In this document: in pieces, positions 475 to 10,981 of the stretch
Layout of the letters: every line of letters starts with the position of its first letter
Numbering within the stretch: the first letter of the stretch is position 1
From: Candidatus Tectimicrobiota bacterium
GTDB taxonomy: Bacteria; JACPSX01
DNA length: 10,981 nucleotides
Assembly: GCA_016193065.1 (NCBI GenBank)
Contig: JACPSX010000017.1
Coordinates: 1 to 10,981, forward strand
Direction of reading: 5' to 3'
Position numbers and translations under genes: made by a program
Notes under the pieces: generated by a model
What the model saw: the letters and a program-made list of their open reading frames with translations, nothing else
Told to the model about the DNA's origin: nothing
The model's database searches: none

Positions 475-2547
475 TTACCTCCGGGTGAGGATGTAGTTTT
501 TCACGCCGTCAACACAGCAGCGGTAGGAAGACGGGATGACCACCGTCGTGGTCTTCTCCTCGACGATTGCCGGGCCTTCCAGTGTGTGCCCGGCGCGTAA
601 TTTGCTGCCATCATAAATCGGGGTGTCTTCATACCCCTTGGTCAGGTTCCACAGGACAGGACGGCGGCGCTTGAGGGCCTGATCGGCCTTCACTGTCGCC
701 TGCGGAATCTCGGCCAGCTTCAAGGGGTCCTGGCGCGCCGTGGCTTTGAGCCGCGCATTGAGGAACTCTACCTCCCGCCCGGGCATGTGGAACGTAAAGA
801 GATCCTGGTGGCGGCGGTGAAAGGCCTGCACGATCTCCTCCAGTTCCCGGGAACCGATCTTCCCGATAGGTACCTCGGTCACCTCCACCTCGTGGAACTG
901 CCCCAAATAGCGCATCTCCAGCGAGCGCCTCAGCACCGTATCCTGCGGGGAAATCCCAATCTCCCCCAGAACCTGGCGGGCCTCCACCTCCATCTCCGCA
1001 AAGAGCCGGTTCACCCGCTCCAGCTCCAACAAGCTCTTGCGGGAAATAATCGAGCGGGCAAAATCCCGCCCCACCTCCATGTTCAGCATCCCAAAGGCAC
1101 TGTAGGTGGCCGCATAGCGGGGGATGATCACCGTGGGAATCTCCAGAAGCTCGGCCAGGTGCGCCCCGTGCACGGGCCCCGCGCCCCCGCCCACCACCAG
1201 GGCAAAGTCCCGCACGTCGTAGCCCCGCTTGGTGGAAATCTCGGTCATCTTGTCGGCCATCACGGAATTGACCGTGGTGAAGATCGTGCGGGCCGCACTG
1301 GGGACATCGAGCCCCAGAGGCTCCCCCACGGTGCGGATCGCCTGCTCGGCCAGATCGGGCTTCAGGGGGATTTCTCCCCCCAAGAAGTAATCCGCCGGGA
1401 CGTAACCCAACATCAGGTCCGCGTCGGTCACCGTGGGCTGGGTGCCCCCCTTCCCGTAGCATGCGGGTCCCGGATCAGCACCCGCGCTTTGCGGACCCAC
1501 CTGCAGGAGCCTCAGGGAATTGATCCAGGCAATGCTCCCCCCGCCGGCCCCCACGCTGGGGACGTCCACCATCTTCATGGCCACCCGCTCATCCCCAACC
1601 CAGTTATAATCCGTCGTCGGGATCATCCCATCCCGGATCAGGCAGACGTCGTAGCTCGTGCCGCCCATGTCCACGGAGAACAGGTTGTTGCTGTGGATGC
1701 ACTGGCCCAGCCGGATGGCGCCCGCCGGAGCCGCGGCGGGGCCCGAGCCGATCAGGGAGACCGCCCGGCGCGCCGATTCCTCCACGGATTGAACCAGGCC
1801 CCCGCCCTGAACCAGGTAGAGCGTCCCCTTGAATCCAAGCTCCCTCAACCGGTTCGTTAGGGCCTTCAGGTAATTGGCAGTAATCGGCCCCACCGCAGCA
1901 CTGACCACCGTGGTGCTGAAGCGTTCGTATTCCCTGTAGACGGGGAGGACCTCGTGAGAAGCGGTCACATAGGTACCGTTCAATTCCTGCCGGCAGATCT
2001 CCAGTGCCCGCTTTTCATGGGCTGGGTTGATGTAGCTATGTAGAAAGCAGATGGCGACTGCTTCGACCTTGTCTTCCTTTAATTTCTTGATGGCGGCGTA
2101 AACGTCTTCTTCCTTTAGAGGCTTCAGGATCTCCCCCGTATGAATCGTTCTCTCCTCGACGGGGAGGCGTAAATAGCGCGGCACCAGGGGCTTGTACGGA
2201 GGAACAAAGACATTAAAGCGGGAGGTGCGGAGGTTTTTGTAGCCCCGGCGAATCTCGATGGTGTCCCGAAACCCTTTGGTGGCCATAAGTCCCACTTTGG
2301 CGATCCGGCCCGTCAGCAAGGCATTGGTGGACAAGGTGGTGCCGTGGGCAATGAGCAGTCCCACATTGGACATGAATTGCGGCAACTCCAGGCCGAAAAA
2401 CGCAGCCGCTTTCGTTAAGACATTGGTCAAGCCAAGAGTGGGATCCTGCGGTGTGGTTGGGGACTTAAAAGCATGAACTTGTCCCTGCTCGTCAAGGACG
2501 AGGCAGTCCGTAAAAGTCCCCCCCACGTCTATCGTGGTCTTGATCAT
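475..2547 (-). CDS. Hydantoinase A/oxoprolinase family ATP-binding subunit (HyuA / acetophenone carboxylase gamma-like), 690 aa
   Basis: Motifs IDVGGTFTD, HGTTLSTNALL, REYERFSTTVV, SGPAA, DMGGTSYDV, GAGGGSIA, VGPQSAGADPGPACYGKGG, PTVTDAD, GGAGPVH, MRYLGQFHE and GPAIVEEKTTT. AAGGAG RBS at 2561-2556. Confidence 0.96.
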   Translation of the reverse strand: MIKTTIDVGGTFTDCLVLDEQGQVHAFKSPTTPQDPTLGLTNVLTKAAAFFGLELPQFMSNVGLLIAHGTTLSTNALLTGRIAKVGLMATKGFRDTIEIRRGYKNLRTSRFNVFVPPYKPLVPRYLRLPVEERTIHTGEILKPLKEEDVYAAIKKLKEDKVEAVAICFLHSYINPAHEKRALEICRQELNGTYVTASHEVLPVYREYERFSTTVVSAAVGPITANYLKALTNRLRELGFKGTLYLVQGGGLVQSVEESARRAVSLIGSGPAAAPAGAIRLGQCIHSNNLFSVDMGGTSYDVCLIRDGMIPTTDYNWVGDERVAMKMVDVPSVGAGGGSIAWINSLRLLQVGPQSAGADPGPACYGKGGTQPTVTDADLMLGYVPADYFLGGEIPLKPDLAEQAIRTVGEPLGLDVPSAARTIFTTVNSVMADKMTEISTKRGYDVRDFALVVGGGAGPVHGAHLAELLEIPTVIIPRYAATYSAFGMLNMEVGRDFARSIISRKSLLELERVNRLFAEMEVEARQVLGEIGISPQDTVLRRSLEMRYLGQFHEVEVTEVPIGKIGSRELEEIVQAFHRRHQDLFTFHMPGREVEFLNARLKATARQDPLKLAEIPQATVKADQALKRRRPVLWNLTKGYEDTPIYDGSKLRAGHTLEGPAIVEEKTTTVVIPSSYRCCVDGVKNYILTRR

Positions 2548-2555
2548 CCAAAATT

Positions 2556-2561
2556 CTCCTT
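2556..2561 (-). promoter_or_regulatory. Shine-Dalgarno (AAGGAG) of the hydantoinase A gene
   Basis: Minus strand reads TTAAGGAGAATTTTGGATG, with 8 nt between the SD and the ATG at 2547. Confidence 0.85.
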
Positions 2562-2606
2562 AAATGCGTAAAGATGGGCTGGCTAGACTGCCCCCCGGCC
2601 AACTAC

Positions 2607-2636
2607 TCTGATTCCAGTTATTTACAGGGAATCAGA
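2607..2636. repeat. Perfect 9-bp inverted repeat TCTGATTCC-N12-GGAATCAGA (leader hairpin or operator)
   Basis: Arms read directly at 2607-2615 and 2628-2636, between the putative promoter and the RBS of the minus-strand operon. Confidence 0.75.
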
Positions 2637-2675
2637 AGGGTAATTTCAGGGCAGGAACCGCAGAACAAAAGCAAG

Positions 2676-2703
2676 ATTATCACAGGCAATTGCCCATTCT
2701 CAA
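2676..2703 (-). promoter_or_regulatory. Putative sigma70 promoter of the hydantoinase operon
   Basis: Minus strand has TTGAGA (2703-2698), a 16-nt spacer and GATAAT (2681-2676), with an extended -10 TGn (TGTGATAAT). Each hexamer matches consensus at 5 of 6 positions. Confidence 0.55.
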
Positions 2704-2979
2704 TAGGCAACCAAGATTATTTTTGTAGCACGTTTTTCCCGGGAATAATCCCGCTCCTTTCGCCGTTTCTCTCCGCTGCATACGACTTTCCAGCACTGCT
2801 TTGGATGGCCTCTTCGGACCTTTCCCGCCACAGGCCCAGGGTAGGGAAAATGGCTCAAGAAAATGATGTAACTACATTCTGTACCGGGGCTGGGATCAAT
2901 GTTAATTCTTTCATGGTTGTTCTTCGAAAGGCGTGTTGGTCCATTGCCATCCCGGCGAGATCCGAAGGGACGGATGACC

Positions 2980-3672
2980 ATGCTGAAATGCCGTTGGGAA
3001 CTCTGCCCCCTGCGCCGCAACGGGATTCTCGCGGAGGAAAACGCCCAGCAGCTTGATGATTACCGGCGCCAGATCTACCCCAGTTTTTACGCCAAGCGCC
3101 AGGTCATCTTTCACGAGGGCAACCCCTGCTTGGGAATCCACGTGCTGTGTTCGGGAACAGTAAAACTGACCCAGACCGATCGCTTCGGTAGGATCCACCT
3201 GCTGAAAATCGTCAAGCCGGGAGACATCATCGGGGACATGGCAGCCTATGAATACCCGGTCTATGCGGTCACGGCCGAAACGGTCGAAAACTGTACGATC
3301 TGTTTTCTACCCAAAGCCGCCCTGCTCGAATTTCTGAACCGCCATTCCGACGTGGCTCTGCGCCTCATCTCCTTGCTGAGTCAGGAATTGCGCAACTCCC
3401 AGGAAAAGATGCGGGATTTCGCCCTGAAAGATGCCGAGGCTCGGCTGGCCACTTTCCTTACAAAACTCGGTGCCGATTACGGCGAGCGCAGCAAGGAAGG
3501 GGTCCGTTTTCGGCTCCCCTTGTCCCGCGGGGAGTTAGCCGAAGCCATCGGAGTCGCACCTGAGACCGTAATTCGCCTCCTGGGCAAGCTTTCCGAAAAA
3601 CGGATTCTAAAGGTCAGAGGCCGTCACTGCGTCATCTCGGACCCCAGCCGCCTGCAAAAGATCGCGGACTAA
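2980..3672 (+). CDS. Crp/Fnr family transcriptional regulator, about 230 aa, Cys-rich
   Basis: Effector beta-barrel (IFHEGNP..IHVLCSGTVKL...IVKPGDIIG), dimerisation helix, AEARLATFL, and HTH LPLSRGELAEAIGVAPETVIRLLGKL. Start moved from 2899 to ATG 2980 (alternative 2974) because GAAGGGA lies at 2964-2970. Confidence 0.93.
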   Translation: MLKCRWELCPLRRNGILAEENAQQLDDYRRQIYPSFYAKRQVIFHEGNPCLGIHVLCSGTVKLTQTDRFGRIHLLKIVKPGDIIGDMAAYEYPVYAVTAETVENCTICFLPKAALLEFLNRHSDVALRLISLLSQELRNSQEKMRDFALKDAEARLATFLTKLGADYGERSKEGVRFRLPLSRGELAEAIGVAPETVIRLLGKLSEKRILKVRGRHCVISDPSRLQKIAD

Positions 3673-3698
3673 GGCGGGAGGCAGGTCGCGGTGGAAAA

Positions 3699-3712
3699 CT
3701 GATTATTATCAA
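3699..3712. promoter_or_regulatory. FNR-type binding box CTGAT-TATT-ATCAA
   Basis: 9 of 10 match to TTGAT-N4-ATCAA, in the intergenic gap between the Crp/Fnr gene and an Fe-S enzyme operon. Confidence 0.75.
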
Positions 3713-3733
3713 TGTAGACCTTGCTCTTCCTCC

Positions 3734-3761
3734 TTGTTCGTAAGGCAGACCTACTTAAACT
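3734..3761 (+). promoter_or_regulatory. Putative sigma70 promoter of the oxidoreductase operon
   Basis: TTGTTC (3734-3739), 16-nt spacer, TAAACT (3756-3761). This would put the FNR box centre at about -61.5/-62.5. Confidence 0.4.
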
Positions 3762-3785
3762 TGGGTCTAAACAGATACCTGAACG

Positions 3786-3798
3786 GTTGTTTAACAAC
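3786..3798. repeat. 13-bp palindrome GTTGTT-T-AACAAC, possible operator
   Basis: Perfect 6-bp arms around one base, ending 23 nt before the gamma-subunit ATG. Confidence 0.5.
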
Positions 3799-3821
3799 TC
3801 CATCAGGATACCAAAGATTCC

Positions 3822-4412
3822 ATGTGGGAGATCCGGTTCCACGGCAGAGGAGGACAGGGAGCCGTTATTGCGTCCAAGATCCTGGCGTCCGCCCTTTTTA
3901 GGGAAGGCCTGTACACCCAGGCTTTCCCTTCCTTCGGGGCGGAGCGGCGCGGGGCTCCAGTGGCGGCTTTCCTGCGCGCCGATCGGGCTCCCATCCGGGT
4001 GCGGGGGGAGATGGCAGGCGCCGACCACCTGCTGATCCTGGATGTCTCCCTGCTTGCTCTCCCGGATCTCCTGAAAGGGTACCGGGAGTCGGGATGGATC
4101 ATCATCAACAGCCCCTGTGCCCCGCTGGATCTGGGTTTCCCCCTTCACTATCGGGTGGCCACCGTGGATGCCGACCGGATTGCCTGGGGCCTGGAGCTGG
4201 GGAGCCGGGCTTTCCCCATCGTCAACACCGCCATACTCGGGGCCTTTGCCCGGGCCAGCGGTCTGGTCTCGGTAGAGTGCCTAAACGACGCTATGAACCC
4301 CTTTATCTCCGTGAAACCCGAGAGGAATCGGAAGGCGATCCGTCAGGCCTACGAGGAGGCAAACCTTAGCGCTCCGCGACCCTTTGAGGTGGAACCGTGC
4401 GCGCAGGGATAG
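3822..4412 (+). CDS. porC: 2-oxoacid:acceptor oxidoreductase gamma subunit (PorC/PorG family), 196 aa
   Basis: EIRFHGRGGQGAV, QAFPSFGAERRGAPVAAF, IIINS, VDADRIA, PIVNTAILGAFAR and NRKAIRQAYE. Confidence 0.95.
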   Translation: MWEIRFHGRGGQGAVIASKILASALFREGLYTQAFPSFGAERRGAPVAAFLRADRAPIRVRGEMAGADHLLILDVSLLALPDLLKGYRESGWIIINSPCAPLDLGFPLHYRVATVDADRIAWGLELGSRAFPIVNTAILGAFARASGLVSVECLNDAMNPFISVKPERNRKAIRQAYEEANLSAPRPFEVEPCAQG

Positions 4413-6094
4413 AAAGCAGTCAGACCTCTACCCTCGTCGCCATATCCACCGGGACGATGGACTGGAACCACACGGGGACTTGGCGCACGCTAAAACCCGT
4501 CTTTCAGACGTTCATCCCCCCTTGCGAGTTGGGTTGCCCCACTGGCGGAAAAATGCGGGAAGTCGCGGCGCTCTTGGCTGCCGACCGATTGCGAGAGGCA
4601 TGGGAGACCTTGGTTATGAACAACCCCTTGCCCGCCGTCTGCGGCCGGGTCTGCAATCATCCTTGCGAGGAGGCCTGCAGCCGCAAGGAACTCGATGAAG
4701 CCGTTTCCCTGCGCGGAATCGAGCGTCACCTGGGGGACTTGGCCCTCAAGAATGGCTGGCACTTCTCTCCTCCAGACCAGATCTGGCCCGAGCGCGTTGC
4801 CATCATCGGCAGCGGTCCCGCAGGTCTTGCTTGCGCTTTCCACGTGCGCCGGCTCGGTTATGGAGTCACCCTGTTTGAAGCCCGAGAGACCCCTGGCGGC
4901 CTTTTACGCTACGGGATCCCCGAGTACCGCCTGTCCCGCGGCATTCTCGATGGGGAGATCTCCCACATTCTGAGCTTAGGGATCGAACTCCAGTTGCGGA
5001 GGTCACTGGGCCAAAATCTCTGGATACAGGATCTGCAGGGCTTCAGGGCGATCTTCCTGGCTACTGGTTTGAGCAAGAGCCGCCGCCTCTACATTCCCGG
5101 AGAAACGTTGCCCGGCGTCCTGTCCGGGCTGGAGTTCCTGGATACAGTGAACAGCAATTCCCGTCCCAACCCGGGCCACCATGTGGTGGTCGTTGGCGGC
5201 GGAAACACGGCCATTGACGCCGCCCGTTCAGCCCTGCGTCTTGGAGCGCGAACCCACGTGGTTTACCGGCGCACACGGGAAGAAATGCCCGCCATCTCTG
5301 AGGAAGTCGAGGCGGCTCGCAGGGAAGGGGTCGAGTTCACATTTCTCACCATACCCGTCTCCATTGAGCACTCCCAGGAAACTACAAGCGGCCGGACGTC
5401 GTTACGGCTGTGCTGCCGGCGCGCGCGCTTCGGAACCTCAGACGCCGGCGGTCGCCCGCAAGTATTCCCGATCCCCCACACCGATTTCATCATAGATGGG
5501 GTCACCAGCGTCATCGCGGCGGTCGGAGAAGAGGCAAACCTGGAGGAGCTCGATCTAAGCCATCTGCAAAGTGACGGCGGAAAACTGGCACTCAGTGCCG
5601 AGCAAGAGAGCGTGATCCCGAACCTCTTCGTGGGGGGAGATCTGGCCTCCGGCGCAGACACCGTGGCGTCGGCCCTGGCCAGCGGCAAGCAGGCCGCCCG
5701 GGCAATTCAGCGGCGTCTGCGAGGCCTGCCGGAAGGCATCTCACCAGAAACTCCCTGGACGGGAAAGATTAACCCCGATTATTTTCTCTCTTCCCCACGA
5801 GCCTCTGCTGCGACTCTTCGCTTAAGCCAACGGGAGAGTTCGTTTGCGGAGGTGAACCAGGGACTTACCCACGAGACCGCCGTTCAGGAATCCCGCCGCT
5901 GTCTTTCCTGTGGATTATGTACCCGCTGCGAGGTCTGCTGGGCCTTCTGTCCCGACCGGGCGGTGGAAAAGGGGGATGACGAATACTGGATCGATTACGA
6001 GCACTGTAAGGGCTGCGGCATCTGCGCCGTGGAATGTCCCCGGGGGGTTATCGCTCTGGCCTTGGAACACCCCTATGCGGGCCGGGAGCTCTAA
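4397..6094 (+). CDS. Delta-subunit (PorD/VorD-like) 2[4Fe-4S] ferredoxin fused with a GltD/NfnB-like FAD/NADP(H) oxidoreductase, 565 aa
   Basis: GTG start after GAGGT, overlapping the gamma gene by 16 nt. Motifs in order: NHTGTWRTLKP; PPCELGCP and CGRVCNHPCEEAC; FAD-binding IIGSGPAG; GGLLRYGIPEYRL; VVGGGNTAIDAAR..VYRR; GGD; FAEV..G...ESRRCLSC; CTRCEVCWAFCP; IDYEHCKGCGICAVECP. Confidence 0.9.
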   Translation: MRAGIESSQTSTLVAISTGTMDWNHTGTWRTLKPVFQTFIPPCELGCPTGGKMREVAALLAADRLREAWETLVMNNPLPAVCGRVCNHPCEEACSRKELDEAVSLRGIERHLGDLALKNGWHFSPPDQIWPERVAIIGSGPAGLACAFHVRRLGYGVTLFEARETPGGLLRYGIPEYRLSRGILDGEISHILSLGIELQLRRSLGQNLWIQDLQGFRAIFLATGLSKSRRLYIPGETLPGVLSGLEFLDTVNSNSRPNPGHHVVVVGGGNTAIDAARSALRLGARTHVVYRRTREEMPAISEEVEAARREGVEFTFLTIPVSIEHSQETTSGRTSLRLCCRRARFGTSDAGGRPQVFPIPHTDFIIDGVTSVIAAVGEEANLEELDLSHLQSDGGKLALSAEQESVIPNLFVGGDLASGADTVASALASGKQAARAIQRRLRGLPEGISPETPWTGKINPDYFLSSPRASAATLRLSQRESSFAEVNQGLTHETAVQESRRCLSCGLCTRCEVCWAFCPDRAVEKGDDEYWIDYEHCKGCGICAVECPRGVIALALEHPYAGREL

Positions 6095-7264
6095 ATGGAA
6101 AGTCTCAAAGCGGGAGCGCAGGTCATCGAAGGGAACACCGCGGCGGTCATCGCTGCCGCCCTCGCCCGCGTGCAGGTGATTGCGGCTTACCCGATCACCC
6201 CCTCCAGCCCCATCGTGGAGAGCCTCTCCGATTTGTGCGCCCAAGGCAAACTCCAGGCCCGCTTTATTCCCGTGGAATCTGAACATTCCGCCATGGCCGC
6301 TTGCATTGGAGCGGCCATGACCGGATGCCGGACCTTTACGGCCACCTCTTCCCAAGGGCTGGCCCTCATGCACGAGCTTCTGCACTGGTCGGCCGGCAGC
6401 CGTCTTCCGATCGTTCTGGTAAATGTGAATCGGGCCCTGGCTCCCCCCTGGACCATCTTCTGCGACCAGAGCGATGCGTTCTCCCAAAGGGACACGGGGT
6501 GGATGCAGATTTACTGCGAAACCGCCCAGGAGGTTTTGGACTCGGTCCTGCAGGCATACCGGATCAGCGAGGAAGTCCTCCTGCCCTGCATGGTGAACAT
6601 GGACGGTTTCTATCTCTCCCACACCGCAGAGCCCGTAGAGGTTCCAGATCCTAAGGAAGTCGATTGCTTTTTGCCTGGTTTTGAACCCCGCTTCCATCTC
6701 GACGCAGCCGATCCTCATGCCTTCGGTGGGGGCACTGCACCGGCCCCCTACATGGAGTTTCGCCATCAGATGCAAGAGGCCATGGAGGAGGCCAAGGACC
6801 GGATCGTGAGGGTGGGTGAAGAATTCGGCCGGCAGTTCGGCCGTTCCTACGGCTTGCTGGAACTCTACCGGGCAGAGAATGCCTCCCTTCTGGTGGTCAC
6901 CTCGGGCTCGATCACCGGTACTGCGCGCGAAGCCGTGGACGGGCTCCGGGATCAAGGGCTCGCCGTAGGGCTGCTGCGGGTGCGGTTCCTGCGACCTTTT
7001 CCCGCTGAAGAGGTACGTCGGGCGGTTTCAAGCGCAGAAACTCTCCTGGTTCTGGACCGGGCCGTCTCTTACGGCCAGGGGGGCACCTTAGCCCAGGAAT
7101 TCAAGGCAGCCCTCTACGGCCAGGACCGGCTTCAAATTTTCTCGATCGTCATGGGACTCGGCGGCGCTCCGGTGACCCGGCAGATGATCGAGGAGACCAC
7201 CCTGATGGCCCTGGAGAGGACGCTGGATCCCTGCCGGTCTCACTGGCTTGGAGGAACGATATGA
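6095..7264 (+). CDS. vorA: 2-oxoacid:ferredoxin oxidoreductase alpha subunit, 2-ketoisovalerate (VorA)-like, 389 aa
   Basis: AYPITP, VESEHSAMAACIGA, TFTATSSQGLALMHE, LHW, NRALAPPW, QRDTGWMQ, LSHT and RPFP. The LHW and APPW variants resemble Thermococcales VorA as I recall it, so the subfamily is less certain than the family. ATG abuts the upstream TAA, with a GGGAG RBS. Confidence 0.88.
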   Translation: MESLKAGAQVIEGNTAAVIAAALARVQVIAAYPITPSSPIVESLSDLCAQGKLQARFIPVESEHSAMAACIGAAMTGCRTFTATSSQGLALMHELLHWSAGSRLPIVLVNVNRALAPPWTIFCDQSDAFSQRDTGWMQIYCETAQEVLDSVLQAYRISEEVLLPCMVNMDGFYLSHTAEPVEVPDPKEVDCFLPGFEPRFHLDAADPHAFGGGTAPAPYMEFRHQMQEAMEEAKDRIVRVGEEFGRQFGRSYGLLELYRAENASLLVVTSGSITGTAREAVDGLRDQGLAVGLLRVRFLRPFPAEEVRRAVSSAETLLVLDRAVSYGQGGTLAQEFKAALYGQDRLQIFSIVMGLGGAPVTRQMIEETTLMALERTLDPCRSHWLGGTI

Positions 7265-9498
7265 TCGGCGCTCAACCTCCATTGTCCCTGCCCGCCCCGG
7301 AACTGATGGGGGCCGGCAACTTGGCCTGCGCAGGCTGCGGAGCCAACCTGGCCATGCGTCTGGCTTTGAAGGCCCTGGGAGAGAAGACCATCGTCCTGAT
7401 CCCCGCCTCTTGCTGGGCCGTCTTTGACGGCCCGTATCCGTTCTCCTCTCTGCGCGTCCCCCTGCTCCACGTGGCCTTTGAGGCAGCCGCTTCAACCGCT
7501 GCCGGCGTACGGGCAGGCCTTGCGGCCCGGGGAGATGATCAGACGCTGGTCATGGCGTGGGCAGGAGACGGGGGGACTTTCGACATCGGTCTGCAGGCCC
7601 TGTCTGCTGCGGCGGAGCGGAACGACGATTTCCTCTTTGTCTGCTATGACAATGAAGCCTACATGAACACGGGAATCCAGCGCAGTTCAGCCACGCCGCA
7701 GCAAGCTTGGACGACGACGACCCCCCTCCCAACTCCCAAAAGCCAGCCCAAGAAAAACATCATGGCCATCATGGCCGCCCATCGGATCCCTTATGGTGCT
7801 ACGGCCTGCGTAGCCTATCCCGAAGATTTGGTCGAAAAATTCCGGACCGCCCGGGAGATTCGAGGGTTCCGGTTTATCCACCTTCTAGCGCCCTGCCCCC
7901 CGGGGTGGAAGTGTGACCCCTCGCTCACGGTAACCCTGGGGAGGCTCGCGGTCAGGAGCTGTTACTTCCCTCTCTATGAGGTTCGTGCGGGGAAGAACTA
8001 CCGGATCACCATTCAGGAAAACCAGACTCCCCTCCAGGATTACGTGGCCCCCCAAGGGAGGTTCCAACACCTCACCTCGGCGGACATAGAAACCCTGGAA
8101 CGGGAAGTTCAAGAAGAATGGCAGAGGCTCCAGAGTTGCGCCTCATCGCAGACTCCGCCTTCCAGCATCCAGTTCGTCCCCATCCGGAGGAAAAAGACCA
8201 TGTATTGGGAAAAAGAGATGGAGTGCATGCCCCGTGAAGAGCTCAGGACCGTTCAGCTTCGCAGGCTGAGGGATACGGTACAGCGTGTTTCGGAAAAGGT
8301 CCCCTTCTACCAGGCAATCCTCAAGGAAAGAGGGGTGCAGGCGGACGACATCCGCTCCCTGGAAGACATAAAGGGCTTGCCTTTCACACTGAAGGACGAC
8401 TTCCGCAAGACCTATCCGTTTGGCCTCTTTGCCGTTCCGCTCAAAGAAATCGGCCGGATTCATGCCTCCTCGGGAACCACGGGGAAACCCATTCTGGGCG
8501 GGTACACACGCAAGGATCTAGATCTGTGGAGCGATCTCATGGCCCGCACGTTGACAGCGGGCTCCGTCACCCACGAAGACGTGGTGCAGAACGGCTACGG
8601 CTACGGCCTTTTCACGGGCGGGTTGGGCTTCCACATGGGAGCCGAGCGCATCGGAGCTGTGGTCATCCCTATGTCGGCGAGCGCTACAGACAGGCAAATC
8701 CTGTTCATGCAGGACCTGGGTCCCACAGTCCTTACCTGCACCCCCTCCTTTGCCCTTTACCTGGCAGAGACCATGGAGGGCATGGGAATCGACCCGCGCA
8801 AGCTCAAGCTGCGGGTGGGATTCTTCGGCGCCGAGCCTTGGACCGCGGAAGCCCGCCGCCAGATCGAGGAAAAACTCGGCTTGAGAGCCCATGACATATA
8901 CGGCCTCACGGAGATCATCGGGCCCGGAGTTTCAGTGGAGTGCGAGGCTCAAAACGGACTCCATTTGAACGAGGATCACTTCTACCCGGAGCTGATCAAT
9001 CCCGACACCCTGGAGCCCGTGGGCCCCGGCGAACCGGGGGAGCTTGTGCTGACCACCCTGACCAAGGAAGCTCTGTCGGTCCTCCGCTATCGCACCCGGG
9101 ACATCACCACCCTGAACTGGAGTCCCTGTGAATGCGGGCGTACCCTGGTCCGCATGGGGAAGGTTCTCGGTCGCAGCGACGACATGCTCATATACAGGGG
9201 AGCCAACCTCTACCCCTCTCAGGTGGAGGGCCTCCTCTTCGCCTTTGCGGAGCTGGAGCCCATCTATCTGATTGTCCTGAGCCGGGAAAAGCAACGCGAT
9301 GAACTTGAGATCCGGGTGGAGGCCAAGCCCGAGATTTACCGGGGTGGCCCCACAGCCCTCATGGAACTGGCCCAACGGATCCAGAACAAGTTCCGGGACT
9401 TCATCAACCTGTCTCCCAGGATCTCCGTGGTGGAGAGGGGATCCATCGAGCGCAGCATCGGCAAGGCCAAGCGGGTTATGGACCTGCGGGCGCAATAG
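7261..9498 (+). CDS. vorB: In-frame fusion: 2-oxoacid oxidoreductase beta subunit (VorB/PorB-like, about aa 1-292) plus phenylacetate-CoA ligase family domain (aa 314-745)
   Basis: Beta part: ACAGCG, IPASC, TPP motif WAGDGGTFDIGLQALS...YDNEAYMNTGIQRS, AHRIPY and APCPPGW. ATGA overlap with the alpha gene and GGAGG at 7250-7254. No stop before 9496-9498. Confidence 0.88.
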   Translation: MIGAQPPLSLPAPELMGAGNLACAGCGANLAMRLALKALGEKTIVLIPASCWAVFDGPYPFSSLRVPLLHVAFEAAASTAAGVRAGLAARGDDQTLVMAWAGDGGTFDIGLQALSAAAERNDDFLFVCYDNEAYMNTGIQRSSATPQQAWTTTTPLPTPKSQPKKNIMAIMAAHRIPYGATACVAYPEDLVEKFRTAREIRGFRFIHLLAPCPPGWKCDPSLTVTLGRLAVRSCYFPLYEVRAGKNYRITIQENQTPLQDYVAPQGRFQHLTSADIETLEREVQEEWQRLQSCASSQTPPSSIQFVPIRRKKTMYWEKEMECMPREELRTVQLRRLRDTVQRVSEKVPFYQAILKERGVQADDIRSLEDIKGLPFTLKDDFRKTYPFGLFAVPLKEIGRIHASSGTTGKPILGGYTRKDLDLWSDLMARTLTAGSVTHEDVVQNGYGYGLFTGGLGFHMGAERIGAVVIPMSASATDRQILFMQDLGPTVLTCTPSFALYLAETMEGMGIDPRKLKLRVGFFGAEPWTAEARRQIEEKLGLRAHDIYGLTEIIGPGVSVECEAQNGLHLNEDHFYPELINPDTLEPVGPGEPGELVLTTLTKEALSVLRYRTRDITTLNWSPCECGRTLVRMGKVLGRSDDMLIYRGANLYPSQVEGLLFAFAELEPIYLIVLSREKQRDELEIRVEAKPEIYRGGPTALMELAQRIQNKFRDFINLSPRISVVERGSIERSIGKAKRVMDLRAQ
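8200..9498 (+). CDS. paaK: Phenylacetate-CoA ligase (PaaK) family AMP-forming acyl-CoA ligase, 432 aa, with an internal start inside the fused ORF
   Basis: GGAGG at 8186-8190, 9 nt, then ATG at 8200 (MYWEKEMECMPREEL). Motifs LPFTLKDD, YPFGLFAVP, IHASSGTTGKP, YGYGLFTGGLG, GAEPW, DIYGLTEIIGPG, RYRTRD, GRSDDM and GKAKRVMDLR. The substrate is not established. Confidence 0.88.
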   Translation: MYWEKEMECMPREELRTVQLRRLRDTVQRVSEKVPFYQAILKERGVQADDIRSLEDIKGLPFTLKDDFRKTYPFGLFAVPLKEIGRIHASSGTTGKPILGGYTRKDLDLWSDLMARTLTAGSVTHEDVVQNGYGYGLFTGGLGFHMGAERIGAVVIPMSASATDRQILFMQDLGPTVLTCTPSFALYLAETMEGMGIDPRKLKLRVGFFGAEPWTAEARRQIEEKLGLRAHDIYGLTEIIGPGVSVECEAQNGLHLNEDHFYPELINPDTLEPVGPGEPGELVLTTLTKEALSVLRYRTRDITTLNWSPCECGRTLVRMGKVLGRSDDMLIYRGANLYPSQVEGLLFAFAELEPIYLIVLSREKQRDELEIRVEAKPEIYRGGPTALMELAQRIQNKFRDFINLSPRISVVERGSIERSIGKAKRVMDLRAQ

Positions 9499-9508
9499 GA
9501 GACCACCC

Positions 9509-10621
9509 ATGGCAAGAATTGCCGTCATCCCCGGAGACGGCATCGGCGTGGACGTCACCCGGGAAGCCATCAAGGTCCTGGAGACCTTAAGGGAGCTGAT
9601 GGGGACTCCACTGGAACTCGTCGAGTTCGATCTGGGCGCCGAGCGAACCCTGAGGACAGGGGTGTCCCTTCCTCCAGGAACCTTCGAGGATTTCCGGCAA
9701 AACTACGATGGGATCTTCCTGGGCGCCCTGGGGGACCCGCGGATTCCCGACATGTCTCACGCCCGGGAGATCCTCCTGGAGATGCGCTTTCAACTGGATC
9801 TCTACATCAACCACCGCCCCGTCCGCCTCCTGGACGAATCCCTCTGCCCTCTGAAAGGTAAAGGAGTAAGCGACGTCAACTTCGTGGTCTTCCGGGAAAA
9901 CACCGAGGGGCTCTATGTGGGCATCGGAGGAATCTTCAAGAAGGGGACGCCGGATGAGGTGGCCCTTCAGGAAGAAGTGAACACCCGCAAGGGGGTCGAG
10001 AGGATCATTCGCCACAGTTTTGAGTACGCCCGGGCCCATGGCCTGGGCAAGGTGACCATGGCGGACAAGAGCAACGCCCTGCGCTACGGCCACGATCTCT
10101 GGCAGCGTGCCTTCCAGGAAGTGGCAGCGGAGTACCCGGAAGTGGAAGCGGAGCATCTCTTCATCGATGCCCTGACCATGCAGATGATCCGCAAACCGGA
10201 GCAATTCCAGGTCATCGTGACGAACAACATGTTTGGCGACATTATCACAGATCTCGGCGCTGCACTCCAGGGCGGGCTGGGCATGGCGGCTTCCGGGAAC
10301 ATCAACCCGAACGGTGTCTCCATGTTCGAGCCGGTCCACGGGTCAGCTCCAAAGTATGCGGGGCAGAACGTGGCCAATCCCATCGGGGCCGTCCTCACGG
10401 CGCAGATGATGCTCCAGCACCTGGGCTTCCCACGGGAGGCGGCGGTGGTGGAAGAGGCAGTCGTGGAGGCAATCCGCCGCCGGCAAGTGACGCGTGACCT
10501 GGGAGGCCCTCTGGGCACGCGAGAGGTAGGGGATTTCATCCGTCGGGAGATCGGTGAATTGGCCAAAACCATGACGCACGGCAACTCATTGGGGCGTGCG
10601 ACGGGCACCCGTCCATCGTGA
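9509..10621 (+). CDS. leuB: Isocitrate/isopropylmalate dehydrogenase family protein (LeuB-like), 370 aa
   Basis: ATG 9509 follows AGGAG (9497-9501), which overlaps the upstream stop. Motifs IAVIPGDGIG, R..LDLYINHRP, FRENTEGLY, DKSNAL, FIDALTM, NMFGDIITD and FEPVHGSAPKYAGQNVANP. Confidence 0.88.
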   Translation: MARIAVIPGDGIGVDVTREAIKVLETLRELMGTPLELVEFDLGAERTLRTGVSLPPGTFEDFRQNYDGIFLGALGDPRIPDMSHAREILLEMRFQLDLYINHRPVRLLDESLCPLKGKGVSDVNFVVFRENTEGLYVGIGGIFKKGTPDEVALQEEVNTRKGVERIIRHSFEYARAHGLGKVTMADKSNALRYGHDLWQRAFQEVAAEYPEVEAEHLFIDALTMQMIRKPEQFQVIVTNNMFGDIITDLGAALQGGLGMAASGNINPNGVSMFEPVHGSAPKYAGQNVANPIGAVLTAQMMLQHLGFPREAAVVEEAVVEAIRRRQVTRDLGGPLGTREVGDFIRREIGELAKTMTHGNSLGRATGTRPS

Positions 10622-10631
10622 AGGAAACGCC

Positions 10632-10981
10632 ATGGGAATGACGATCAGCGAGAAGATCCTGGCCGGTCACTCGGGAAAACCCGAAGTGGAGCCTGGCCAG
10701 CTCCTCTTTGCAAAGGTGGACCTTTCCCTGGCCACGGATATCGTCACCGCGCTGACCGTCCAGGTCTTCGAGGAGATGGGGGGGAAGATGCTCGCCGATC
10801 CGGAACGGATCGTTCTGGTCAACGATCACTATGTACCTGCCAAGGACATTGCGTCGGCCAAGCTCTCCAAGACCATGCGGGAGTTTGCCCGCCGCTACGG
10901 GATTAAATACTACTACGAGGTGGGCCGGGCCGGAATCTGTCACGTTCTCCTCCCCGAGGAGGGACACGTCCTCCCGGGAGA
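10632..10981 (+). CDS. leuC: 3-isopropylmalate dehydratase/homoaconitase family large subunit (LeuC type 2), N-terminal part; continues past the right edge
   Basis: Manually translated: MGMTISEKILAGHSGKPEVEPGQLLFAKVDLSLATDIVTALTVQVFEEMGGKMLADPERIVLVNDHYVPAKDIASAKLSKTMREFARRYGIKYYYEVGRAGICHVLLPEEGHVLPG. It has the MTxxEKIL, DHxVP and GICH motifs, with an AAGGA RBS at 10621-10625. Confidence 0.9.
   Translation, partial: MGMTISEKILAGHSGKPEVEPGQLLFAKVDLSLATDIVTALTVQVFEEMGGKMLADPERIVLVNDHYVPAKDIASAKLSKTMREFARRYGIKYYYEVGRAGICHVLLPEEGHVLPG

Follow-up and report, generated by a model that had tools for sequence, protein, structure and literature searches.

The window analyzed here is a stretch of 10,981 nucleotides (nt) that makes up the whole of contig C293 of a Candidatus Tectimicrobiota metagenome-assembled genome (MAG; G000, 2.90 Mb, 294 contigs, 86% complete). 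Six plus-strand open reading frames (ORFs) at positions 3822 to 10981 encode a 2-oxoacid:ferredoxin oxidoreductase (OFOR), a carboxylic acid-coenzyme A (CoA) ligase and two leucine-type enzymes, and they make up the first (5') half of a cluster that extends over at least 17 kb on one strand. The lineage belongs to a very sparsely sampled phylum, which is represented in the genome collection searched by only two species genomes, G000 and its congener G001. All four DNA sequencing runs that contained at least 89% of the sampled words are labeled groundwater metagenome and are from a single study. Proteins encoded in the window were scanned against NCBIfam and Pfam, with scores given in bits against the curated cutoffs of the models, and gene calls at other loci are based on family matches. 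Contigs are labeled C and loci L.

A six-gene unit and its continuation beyond the contig end

The six ORFs listed in the first-pass annotation of the window were borne out, with the domain content claimed for them. The OFOR gamma subunit (3822 to 4412; PF01558; TIGR02175, 174.2 bits against a cutoff of 81.1) is followed by a 565-amino-acid protein in which a GltD/NfnB-like NAD(P)H flavoprotein is joined to a probable two-[4Fe-4S]-cluster delta subunit of the OFOR (4397 to 6094; Fer4_20, Pyr_redox_2, and Fer4). Next come an alpha subunit of the pyruvate oxidoreductase (POR)/2-oxoisovalerate oxidoreductase (VOR) type (6095 to 7264; POR_N and PFOR_II) and a 745-amino-acid protein that combines a thiamine pyrophosphate (TPP)-binding beta subunit (TPP_enzyme_C, residues 9 to 295) with a PaaK-type acid-CoA ligase (residues 318 to 743) in one ORF (7261 to 9498). 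The last two genes encode a LeuB-type 3-isopropylmalate dehydrogenase (IPMDH; 9510 to 10621), which is a second LeuB copy in the genome, and the N-terminal 116 residues of a LeuC-type isomerase large subunit (10633 to 10981; TIGR02083 positions 1 to 114), which is cut by the contig end.

These genes are tightly packed. The gamma and GltD-delta genes overlap by 16 nt, the GltD-delta and alpha genes abut, and alpha and beta share a 4-nt ATGA overlap. The stop codon of the beta-PaaK gene at 9498 is separated from the LeuB ATG at 9510 by an 11-nt spacer containing GGAG, and the LeuB stop at 10621 is separated from the LeuC ATG at 10633 by another 11-nt spacer with a GGAG-type ribosome site; the overlaps and abutment described earlier stand, while the spacers measure 11 nt rather than 10. 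By its ribosome site, LeuB starts at 9510 and not at the ATG at 9299 that opens the longer ORF, and LeuC starts at 10633. A simple scan of positions 2400 to 10981 found no plus-strand terminator-like site. One plus-strand promoter-like match (8891 to 8918) lies inside the ligase domain, and the count on both strands was three against 2.0 expected. A separate promoter for leuB and leuC was looked for, and the same simple scan gave no promoter-like or terminator-like signal between the ligase and leuB, in agreement with the single unit proposed in the first-pass annotation. On this evidence the six genes look like one transcription unit.

A CRP/FNR-family transcription regulator is encoded upstream on the plus strand (2899 to 3672). 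It carries a cNMP-binding domain and HTH_Crp_2 (cNMP_binding, 67.5 bits, and HTH_Crp_2, 63.4 bits, above cutoff; Crp), which places it in the CRP/FNR superfamily. Its start codon is probably downstream of 2899, since the alignment with the congener begins at residue 16. A 160-codon ORF on the plus strand (2574 to 3056) that runs into the start of the regulator matches no family, its identity to the congener sequence is only 41.6% against 91.7% for the regulator, and it probably does not represent a gene. A TGAT-N4-ATCA palindrome with CRP/FNR-type half-sites, TGATTATTATCA, lies at 3700 to 3711, inside the 149-nt gap between the regulator gene and gamma and 111 nt upstream of the gamma ATG. It is the sole match to this pattern in the window; the mean in shuffled sequences was 0.14, and 28 of 200 shuffles had at least one match, so that these statistics are weak on their own. 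Both arms are kept in the congener, where the surrounding intergenic region is 86% identical. Because of its position between the regulator gene and gamma and the conservation of its arms, the palindrome is a reasonable candidate operator. The regulator scores 92.3 against the Fnr model NF008365 (cutoff, 228), and its cysteines are limited to a C-X4-C near the N terminus and a C-X2-C in mid-protein, a pattern that differs from the N-terminal cysteine cluster of canonical FNR. What had been called an FNR box controlling an operon therefore reduces to one CRP/FNR-type site beside a CRP/FNR-family gene. In four loci labeled Desulfobacterota (L059, L064, L071, and L073), a regulator gene of the HTH_3 plus Cupin_2 type lies directly 5' of gamma, and L066 has a Cupin_2-only ORF; this place is taken by the CRP/FNR-type gene in G000 and G001. 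A gene of the HTH_3 plus Cupin_2 type is also found between LeuB and LeuC in the metagenome locus L111 (1513 to 2103).

The two assemblies tile each other reciprocally, so that the breaks in each are spanned by the other, and together they give the order CRP/FNR regulator, palindrome, gamma, GltD/NfnB-like-delta, alpha, beta-PaaK, LeuB, LeuC, LeuD, IorA, IorB, a short LeuA-type synthase, and a Liv-type ABC importer. Contig C145 of G001 has a gene order identical to that of the window from the hydantoinase genes that precede the regulator to the first 167 residues of LeuB (81.5% DNA identity over 10,053 columns). G001 contig C340 carries the end of LeuB, LeuC, a spacer of ∼250 nt, LeuD, and the start of IorA. 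In G000, contig C5 continues from LeuC residue ∼111 through LeuD, IorA, IorB, and an HMGL-like-only LeuA-type synthase to a Peripla_BP_6 binding protein, after which C334 of G001 supplies LivH- and LivM-type permeases. IorA and IorB of C5, the two subunits of indolepyruvate oxidoreductase (IOR), exceed their equivalog cutoffs (TIGR03336, 697.6 against 650.9; NF005322, 239.9 against 237). The downstream leuD, leuA-type synthase and transporter raised in the first-pass annotation are all present past the window end, and IorAB had been invisible to it because the two genes lie on C5, outside the window. The LeuD-IorA and IorA-IorB junctions on C5 are 10 nt apart or overlapping; wider gaps separate LeuC from LeuD (250 nt) and the LeuA-like gene from the substrate-binding protein (115 nt).

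The leuB-leuC region contains contig breaks in both MAGs. The G000 break falls at about position 2600 of G001 C340 (locus L103), and when contigs of the four groundwater runs were compared, it was bridged at no less than 80% likeness to C340 by record 15 of X2 (2342 to 3317) and record 31 of X4 (2273 to 3317). The first ∼36 nt of C5 (region 1 to 40), just before a conserved GADSHTC motif, encode a variant segment and match neither the window end (10940 to 10981) nor the congener. Because the start of C5 differs in this way from both C293 and G001, the break is probably an assembly-graph tangle among LeuC/aconitase-family paralogues. The LeuC-LeuD spacer (C5, 939 to 1187; C340, 1438 to 1690) is 89% identical between the species, compared to about 81 to 82% in the flanking coding DNA, and holds a nearly invariant core of ∼70 nt; a 70-codon ORF overlaps it in G000. 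Its folding energy is −98.1 kcal/mol against −82.8 ± 5.05 kcal/mol for shuffled sequences (z = −3.04). The spacer has no Rfam match at an E value of ≤1, no conserved RNA was found in the LeuC-LeuD spacers of distant clusters (mean column identity, 41%), and the window, C5, and C340 have no Rfam match at gathering score.

Divergently from the cluster, the minus strand of the window encodes the N-terminal part of a hydantoinase-B-type subunit (3 to 467), which runs off the window start, matches 6yra_B (“Hydantoinase”) at 85.4 bits, and is 91.6% identical in the congener. Beside it lies a hydantoinase-A/caprolactamase-alpha-like subunit of an ATP-dependent hydrolase or carboxylase (475 to 2547, minus strand; Hydantoinase_A, Hydant_A_N, and Hydant_A_C), which scores 651 bits against the CapA model (cutoff, 1000). 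Hydantoinase-A/acetophenone-carboxylase-type tblastn matches at 28 to 38% identity to the window copy occur on 12 G000 contigs, the window included (the others being C6, C48, C127, C102, C123, C82, C98, C84, C54, C244, and C202), an unusual expansion for a 2.9-Mb genome.

Oxidoreductase subunits and two gene fusions

The gamma, alpha, and TPP-binding beta domains of the oxidoreductase are present and intact, and both species keep the GDGG/TPP region. The enzyme has gamma, alpha, and beta subunits and a probable delta subunit with the domains of PorCDAB and VorCDAB, its top models are PorA_Arch, VorA, and the VorB subfamily, and the closest solved chain to alpha is 9bt4_B, the alpha subunit of a four-subunit pyruvate:ferredoxin oxidoreductase (PFOR; 307 bits). 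It differs from POR and VOR in its two fusions, of a GltD/NfnB-like flavoprotein with delta and of a CoA ligase with beta, and in that no equivalog cutoff is reached: alpha scores 455.4 against 550 for PorA_Arch and 402.6 against 646 for VorA (NF006232), and beta scores 388.3 against 405 for the VorB subfamily (NF008818) and 350.1 against 405 for PorB.

In the GltD-delta protein, residues ∼40 to 440 form the GltD/NfnB-type flavoprotein (NF009410, 513.9 against a cutoff of 516) and residues ∼503 to 557 form a C-terminally fused PorD-type two-cluster ferredoxin (Fer4 and Fer4_9 at residues 508 to 552; TIGR02179, 55.5 against 60.05). The closest solved chains to the flavoprotein part are NfnB/GltD-type modules; the likeness to them extends over the N-terminal 500 residues, and the fusion to an OFOR delta subunit sets the protein apart. 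Because the cluster has no NfnA-like partner, electron bifurcation is not indicated. A survey of OFOR and ligase relatives among genome contigs retained 80 loci, and gamma, GltD-delta, alpha, and beta occur in the window order in 31 of them, from many phyla by record title. The GltD-delta fusion is thus real.

The distribution of the second fusion is narrow. Among the 120 matches listed from 8,000 scored candidates of 409 to 1,304 amino acids, full-length beta-PaaK proteins formed two clusters, the window protein and P0002 (745 amino acids, 87% identity, 12 members), while the other 118 covered 57 to 59% of the query, corresponding to the ligase part. A full-length fusion was found only in G000 and G001 among 41 genomes. 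The proteins of these two species align over 745 columns at 87% identity with no gap, linker included, and we conclude from this alignment that the fusion is real and maintained; it is genus specific. The ligase part (residues ∼314 to 745; AMP-binding and AMP-binding_C_2) keeps SSGTTGKP and C-terminal GKAKR motifs and scores below the PaaK equivalog cutoffs (TIGR02155, 525.9 against 646.3; NF041878, 552.2 against 700).

IorA, IorB, or both flank 16 of the 31 loci that match the ligase part, which are its closest free-standing relatives, and IOR thus appears from gene context to be the usual partner of this ligase type. The cluster shares with the IorAB-PaaK module, which interconverts arylpyruvates and arylacetyl-CoA in aryl-acid salvage or fermentation, an equivalog-level IorAB and a ligase whose kin stand beside IorAB. 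It differs in that the ligase does not adjoin iorAB: it is joined to the beta subunit of a different OFOR, and leuB, leuC, and leuD lie between it and iorAB. A further difference is the LeuA-type gene that directly follows iorB.

The gene order had also been said to recall the padEFGHIJ cluster of denitrifiers, and one could suppose that the OFOR-ligase part is a Pad-like, NAD+-dependent phenylglyoxylate (arylglyoxylate) oxidoreductase with a phenylacetate-CoA ligase. The subunit inventory, the presence of an NAD(P)H module, and the order of beta and then ligase, as in padEFGHI-padJ, would suit such an enzyme, as both systems place a POR-type OFOR with an NAD(P)-reducing component before a PaaK-type ligase. 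Against this, the NAD(P) module here is GltD/NfnB-like, the PadH model (NF045765) has no match on C293, and all four remaining Pad equivalogs give scores (gamma, 144.6 against 300; delta, 43.5 against 150; alpha, 312.4 against 700; beta, 217.8 against 700) that fall far short of their cutoffs and are lower than those of the POR/VOR models. Membership in the Pad family, as judged by PadE, PadF, PadG, and PadI, was rejected, and we regard a Pad-like enzyme as very improbable. The best PadH-model matches in the genome are on C27 (9047 to 10246; 287 bits) and C211 (8412 to 9257; 222 bits), both below the cutoff of 475, and the latter lies ∼1.6 kb from an opposite-strand OFOR-alpha-like or IorA-like match. 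The pathway of padEFGHI-padJ is outlined in passages of PMC5109826.

The elongation genes and their recurrence beside oxidoreductases

Cluster LeuB exceeds the cutoff of NF002898 (414.4 against 393) and stays below that of TIGR00169 (271.1 against 353.2); the solved LeuB-type structure 1w0d matches it at 279 bits. The congener LeuC reaches 606.9 against 610.65 for TIGR02083 (LEU2) and 604 against 385 for the subfamily model NF001614, and the LeuD proteins score 215 (congener) and 217.7 (G000) against 245.85. G000 has four LeuCD sets, of which that of the cluster is top on the LEU2 and leud equivalogs (LeuC, 606.9; LeuD, 217.7), compared to 415 to 487 for LeuC and 109 to 180 for LeuD in the other three. 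The first-pass annotation had raised the question of a separate housekeeping leucine set; LeuA, CimA, and LeuB do occur elsewhere in the genome, while a distinct housekeeping LeuCD is not secured because the set in the cluster scores highest. Of the paralogous sets, that on C229 stands in a row of genes for a DHO_dh/Fer4 protein, a LeuB-like protein, LeuC, LeuD, and two RraA-like aldolases or decarboxylases. On C139, LeuC and LeuD are split by an NMT1-type binding protein and a phosphoenolpyruvate-mutase/isocitrate-lyase-family gene, an arrangement that presumably recalls dimethylmalate-type pathways, and on C214 they lie beside an aspartate-semialdehyde dehydrogenase. An ARYC(T/N)-like loop is present in LeuD of G000, G001, and five metagenome loci, two of which vary at the third residue (ARHCN and ARRCN), and the three LeuD paralogues in G000 are without it. 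This loop is a lead to a possible difference in specificity.

The synthase encoded after IorB belongs to a large family of ∼413 to 440 amino acids whose members are named “2-isopropylmalate synthase” or “LeuA family protein” in source records. It has an HMGL-like domain only, with no LeuA_dimer domain, and its best equivalog score is 193.8 against 517; LeuA_dimer matches in G000 are confined to C166 and C15. In homocitrate synthases, the distal carboxylate of 2-oxoglutarate is bound by basic or polar residues. The two solved examples of these enzymes that were examined read V-R-F-(S/T)-A-E-D at a segment where the short LeuA reads VMFVTED, so that Met and Val replace Arg and Ser/Thr, and it has Ala at the position of His in 6ktq. 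These replacements argue for a hydrophobic 2-oxoacid, rather than 2-oxoglutarate, as its substrate. A homocitrate/2-oxoadipate route was rejected, as the synthase is without the Arg and Ser/Thr and LeuB scores as an IPMDH.

In a domain-wide sample, 24 of 301 genomes contain the short LeuA family at an E value of ≤1e−90. Five near-complete genomes (G065, G222, G061, G059, and G079; 96 to 100% complete, four families) were checked along with 14 controls. Three of the five have no HMGL-like gene other than the short LeuA, and the other two have one more; LeuA_dimer scores above cutoff in none of the five and in all 14 controls. Since it is the sole LeuA-family gene in three genomes and LeuA_dimer is missing from all five, the short LeuA is probably a working isopropylmalate synthase devoid of the regulatory domain in those lineages, where it perhaps also serves as citramalate synthase. 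Compared to leucine biosynthesis by leuA-leuCD-leuB, the elongation set thus has a LeuB that passes as IPMDH, a LeuC at the LEU2 threshold, and a synthase with the HMGL-like domain and a hydrophobic pocket; it differs in that this synthase is without LeuA_dimer and matches no equivalog, and in being a second genome copy embedded among OFOR genes.

The adjacency of such a set to oxidoreductase genes recurs. We collected 80 metagenome loci with a short-LeuA homologue at 58 to 72% identity, 15 of which extend 4 kb or more in each direction. LeuB of the window type occurs in 23 of the 80 loci (8 of the 15 long ones), IorA together with IorB in 5 (4 of 15), LeuC in 5 (3 of 15), and LeuD in 6 (3 of 15). 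L165, L185, and L187 share the IorA-IorB-LeuA-like order of G000 and G001; L151 differs in having a PaaK gene and another IorB-type (gamma-like) gene between IorB and the LeuA-like gene. PaaK genes are present in L151 and L187 and as a fragment in L185, and L187 carries a Liv-type importer. Among 23 short-LeuA loci from 22 genomes, two of one family (G065 and G228) have POR/VOR-type alpha and beta genes, 57 to 59% identical to those of the window, directly before the short LeuA. In the closed genome G065, two hydroxyacyl-CoA dehydrogenases, an enoyl-CoA hydratase, and a second OFOR (alpha, beta, and gamma) precede this alpha-beta pair, and the short LeuA is followed by a pyridoxal phosphate (PLP)-dependent aminotransferase, LeuC (662.5 against 610.65), LeuD, and LeuB (450.5 against 393). 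OFOR adjacency to the elongation set therefore arose with two different OFOR types. The exact oxidoreductase-ligase-leu linkage, conservation of which the first-pass annotation had left to further genomes, is limited with its fusion to one genus; what recurs in unrelated contigs and genomes is the linkage of an OFOR with LeuA-like, LeuCD, and LeuB genes.

A tentative pathway, its alternatives, and implications

We tentatively favor, with somewhat less than even confidence, the view that the cluster is one metabolic unit, in which hydrophobic acids or acyl-CoAs and 2-oxoacids are converted into one another and the 2-oxoacids are elongated by one carbon; the coupling, direction, and substrates of the steps are inferred. 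This reading is preferred because the adjacency recurs, the packing is tight, and the chemistry is shared, in that the substrates condensed by a LeuA-type enzyme and the products released by a LeuB-type enzyme are exactly the 2-oxoacids that OFORs make or consume. An imported acid would be activated by the ligase domain, and the acyl-CoA would be reductively carboxylated by the ferredoxin-linked IOR. The short LeuA would condense the resulting 2-oxoacid with acetyl-CoA, LeuCD would isomerize the product, and LeuB would decarboxylate it oxidatively. The longer 2-oxoacid could then be transaminated to an amino acid, or the NAD(P)+-linked OFOR could convert it to the next-higher acyl-CoA. Branched-chain substrates are most likely, with isobutyrate leading by way of 2-oxoisovalerate to 2-oxoisocaproate (the leucine branch), and aryl acids rank second. 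Our placement of the pathway in branched-chain metabolism, with an anabolic or salvage role, is based on the leucine-type scores, the hydrophobic pocket, the Liv-type importer, and the aminotransferase in the G065 cluster. That aminotransferase would favor the anabolic direction, as the first-pass annotation had anticipated of such a gene, and it is found in this related cluster and not in the assembled cluster of G000 and G001.

The absence of an aminotransferase there is one of several findings that weigh against the unit as drawn. Judged against the congener and P0121 (97% identical, 439 amino acids), the short LeuA of G000 is frameshifted, with ∼67 nt missing near codon 371 (C5, about 5256 to 5265); its catalytic barrel is intact, and its C-terminal ∼70 residues are lost or altered, through either an assembly error or a strain-specific lesion. 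G000 also encodes a canonical LeuA on C166 (779.7 against 532), a CimA on C15 beside homoserine dehydrogenase and aspartate kinase (814.7 against 450), and a TIGR00169-type LeuB on C127 (481 against 353.2), so that a biosynthetic need for a second leu set is not evident. The closest solved relatives of the ligase are phenylacetate-CoA ligases (411 [2y27], 403, and 397 bits), with 2-hydroxyisobutyryl-CoA synthetase (6hdw) at 180 bits. Established redox potentials imply that an OFOR coupled to NAD(P)H should favor oxidative decarboxylation, and a fused activating ligase that feeds such an enzyme therefore fits poorly. The related metagenome clusters contain catabolic-looking genes, namely those for aldehyde:ferredoxin oxidoreductases in L151 and L165, thioesterases in L165 and L185, an acyl-CoA dehydrogenase in L185, and Zn-alcohol dehydrogenases in L165 and L187. 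Finally, at all 31 other loci the strand that carries the GltD-OFOR module is free of ligase, Leu, and Ior genes, and a PaaK gene flanks the module in none of the 31. L034 has LeuB, LeuC, and LeuD on the opposite strand, 4.6 to 9.9 kb from the module, and L037 has IorAB upstream on the opposite strand. Apart from the HTH_3 plus Cupin_2 regulator, no shared neighbors of the module were found among 118 ORFs at 17 loci, and its link to the remaining cluster may be a local accident.

Such an accident is the core of a second explanation, which we consider unlikely yet worth weighing in full: the genes would form not one pathway but a leucine operon (leuB-leuC-leuD and the short leuA), possibly the main one of the organism, between two independent OFOR systems. 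These would be an NAD(P)+-linked POR/VOR of central metabolism and an IorAB-PaaK pair for aromatic amino acid fermentation or salvage, with the beta-ligase fusion a neutral loss of a stop codon. The self-contained GltD-OFOR modules and the restriction of the fusion to one genus fit this explanation, as does the fact that cluster LeuC and LeuB reach or nearly reach the equivalog scores of isopropylmalate isomerase (IPMI) and IPMDH. A role as main leucine operon is possible since its LeuCD is the best isopropylmalate isomerase candidate in the genome. Three of five near-complete genomes have no LeuA-family gene besides the short LeuA. Moreover, the short LeuA occurs mostly in housekeeping-like or variable contexts, 75 of the 80 metagenome loci being without IorAB and 21 of the 23 genome loci without an adjacent OFOR. 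The recurrence of the IorA-IorB-LeuA-like order at 58 to 72% identity, and of the linkage with two OFOR types, is on the other hand hard to ascribe to chance. The canonical LeuA, CimA, and LeuB elsewhere in G000 also speak against a main leucine operon here, and so do the junctions, tight except for the LeuC-LeuD and LeuA-like-SBP (substrate-binding protein) gaps, and a fusion linker without insertions or deletions between the species.

The aryl-acid type of the ligase and IOR raises a third possibility, the catabolic one-carbon homologation of arylacetates, which we hold to be improbable. The ligase would activate phenylacetate, IOR would carboxylate the CoA ester to phenylpyruvate, and LeuA-like, LeuCD, and LeuB would elongate this to 2-oxo-4-phenylbutyrate. 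The NAD(P)+-linked OFOR, to which an oxidative last step is suited, would then yield 3-phenylpropionyl-CoA for beta-oxidation to benzoyl-CoA and acetyl-CoA. The genome encodes a bzd-type benzoyl-CoA reductase on C149 (L191 and L192; BzdN, 554 against 453.8; BzdO, 699.9 against 448.6; BzdQ, 498 against 380.2; and a second activase). This contig also carries a two-subunit PFOR-like OFOR, an 843-amino-acid HoxU/NuoG-like protein fused to a GltD-like part, a pair each of acyl-CoA dehydrogenases and Oah/BadI-like hydratases, and an electron transfer flavoprotein (ETF) along with a FixC-type gene. By this gene content the organism looks like an anaerobic degrader of aromatic compounds. In the related clusters, an acyl-CoA dehydrogenase, thioesterases, and aldehyde:ferredoxin oxidoreductases would suit this route, as would the loop motif that sets the cluster-type LeuD apart from its three paralogues. 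Passages of PMC5109826 describe sulfate reducers as devoid of PadB and PadEFGHI and their way from phenylacetyl-CoA to benzoyl-CoA as unclear; carboxylation, elongation, decarboxylation, and beta-oxidation would supply one. Against arylacetate homologation, the short LeuA of other genomes appears to be their ordinary isopropylmalate synthase, LeuB reaches an IPMDH score and LeuC an IPMI score or nearly so, the G065 cluster includes an aminotransferase, and the binding protein is Liv-like. For the full aromatic route from phenylacetyl-CoA to benzoyl-CoA, a homologation shunt that would be independent of molybdenum enzymes and would recover the acetyl-CoA spent, we see only a slim chance.

By their family matches, all proteins of the cluster belong to known families. 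The first-pass annotation knew of no described operon with the full combination of genes, and our literature search likewise found none: the beta-ligase fusion, the full gene combination, and the linkage of OFOR with a short LeuA are undescribed in the literature searched, outside of which lay subscription journals and supplements. HphABCD is the homophenylalanine (2-oxoacid homologation) pathway of cyanobacteria. The trio of LeuA-, LeuCD-, and LeuB-like enzymes could likewise extend an aromatic 2-oxoacid by a single carbon; it is tied here to OFORs and a ligase and in Hph to peptide synthetases.

If the genes cooperate, the cluster would provide a compact route from a carboxylic acid to the next-higher 2-oxoacid or acyl-CoA by way of CO2 fixation by an OFOR and leucine-type elongation. 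For the widespread OFOR with a GltD-delta subunit, a direct coupling of 2-oxoacid oxidation to NAD(P) is predicted, and the widespread, uncharacterized short LeuA type seems to stand in for canonical LeuA in several lineages. The aromatic version, if true, would bear on an open question in anaerobic phenylacetate degradation, since the shunt would explain how phenylacetate enters the benzoyl-CoA pathway in strict anaerobes without PadBCD and PadEFGHI. Along with the GltD-delta OFOR and the short LeuA type, the recurring link between OFORs and elongation enzymes is a point that reaches past this window.

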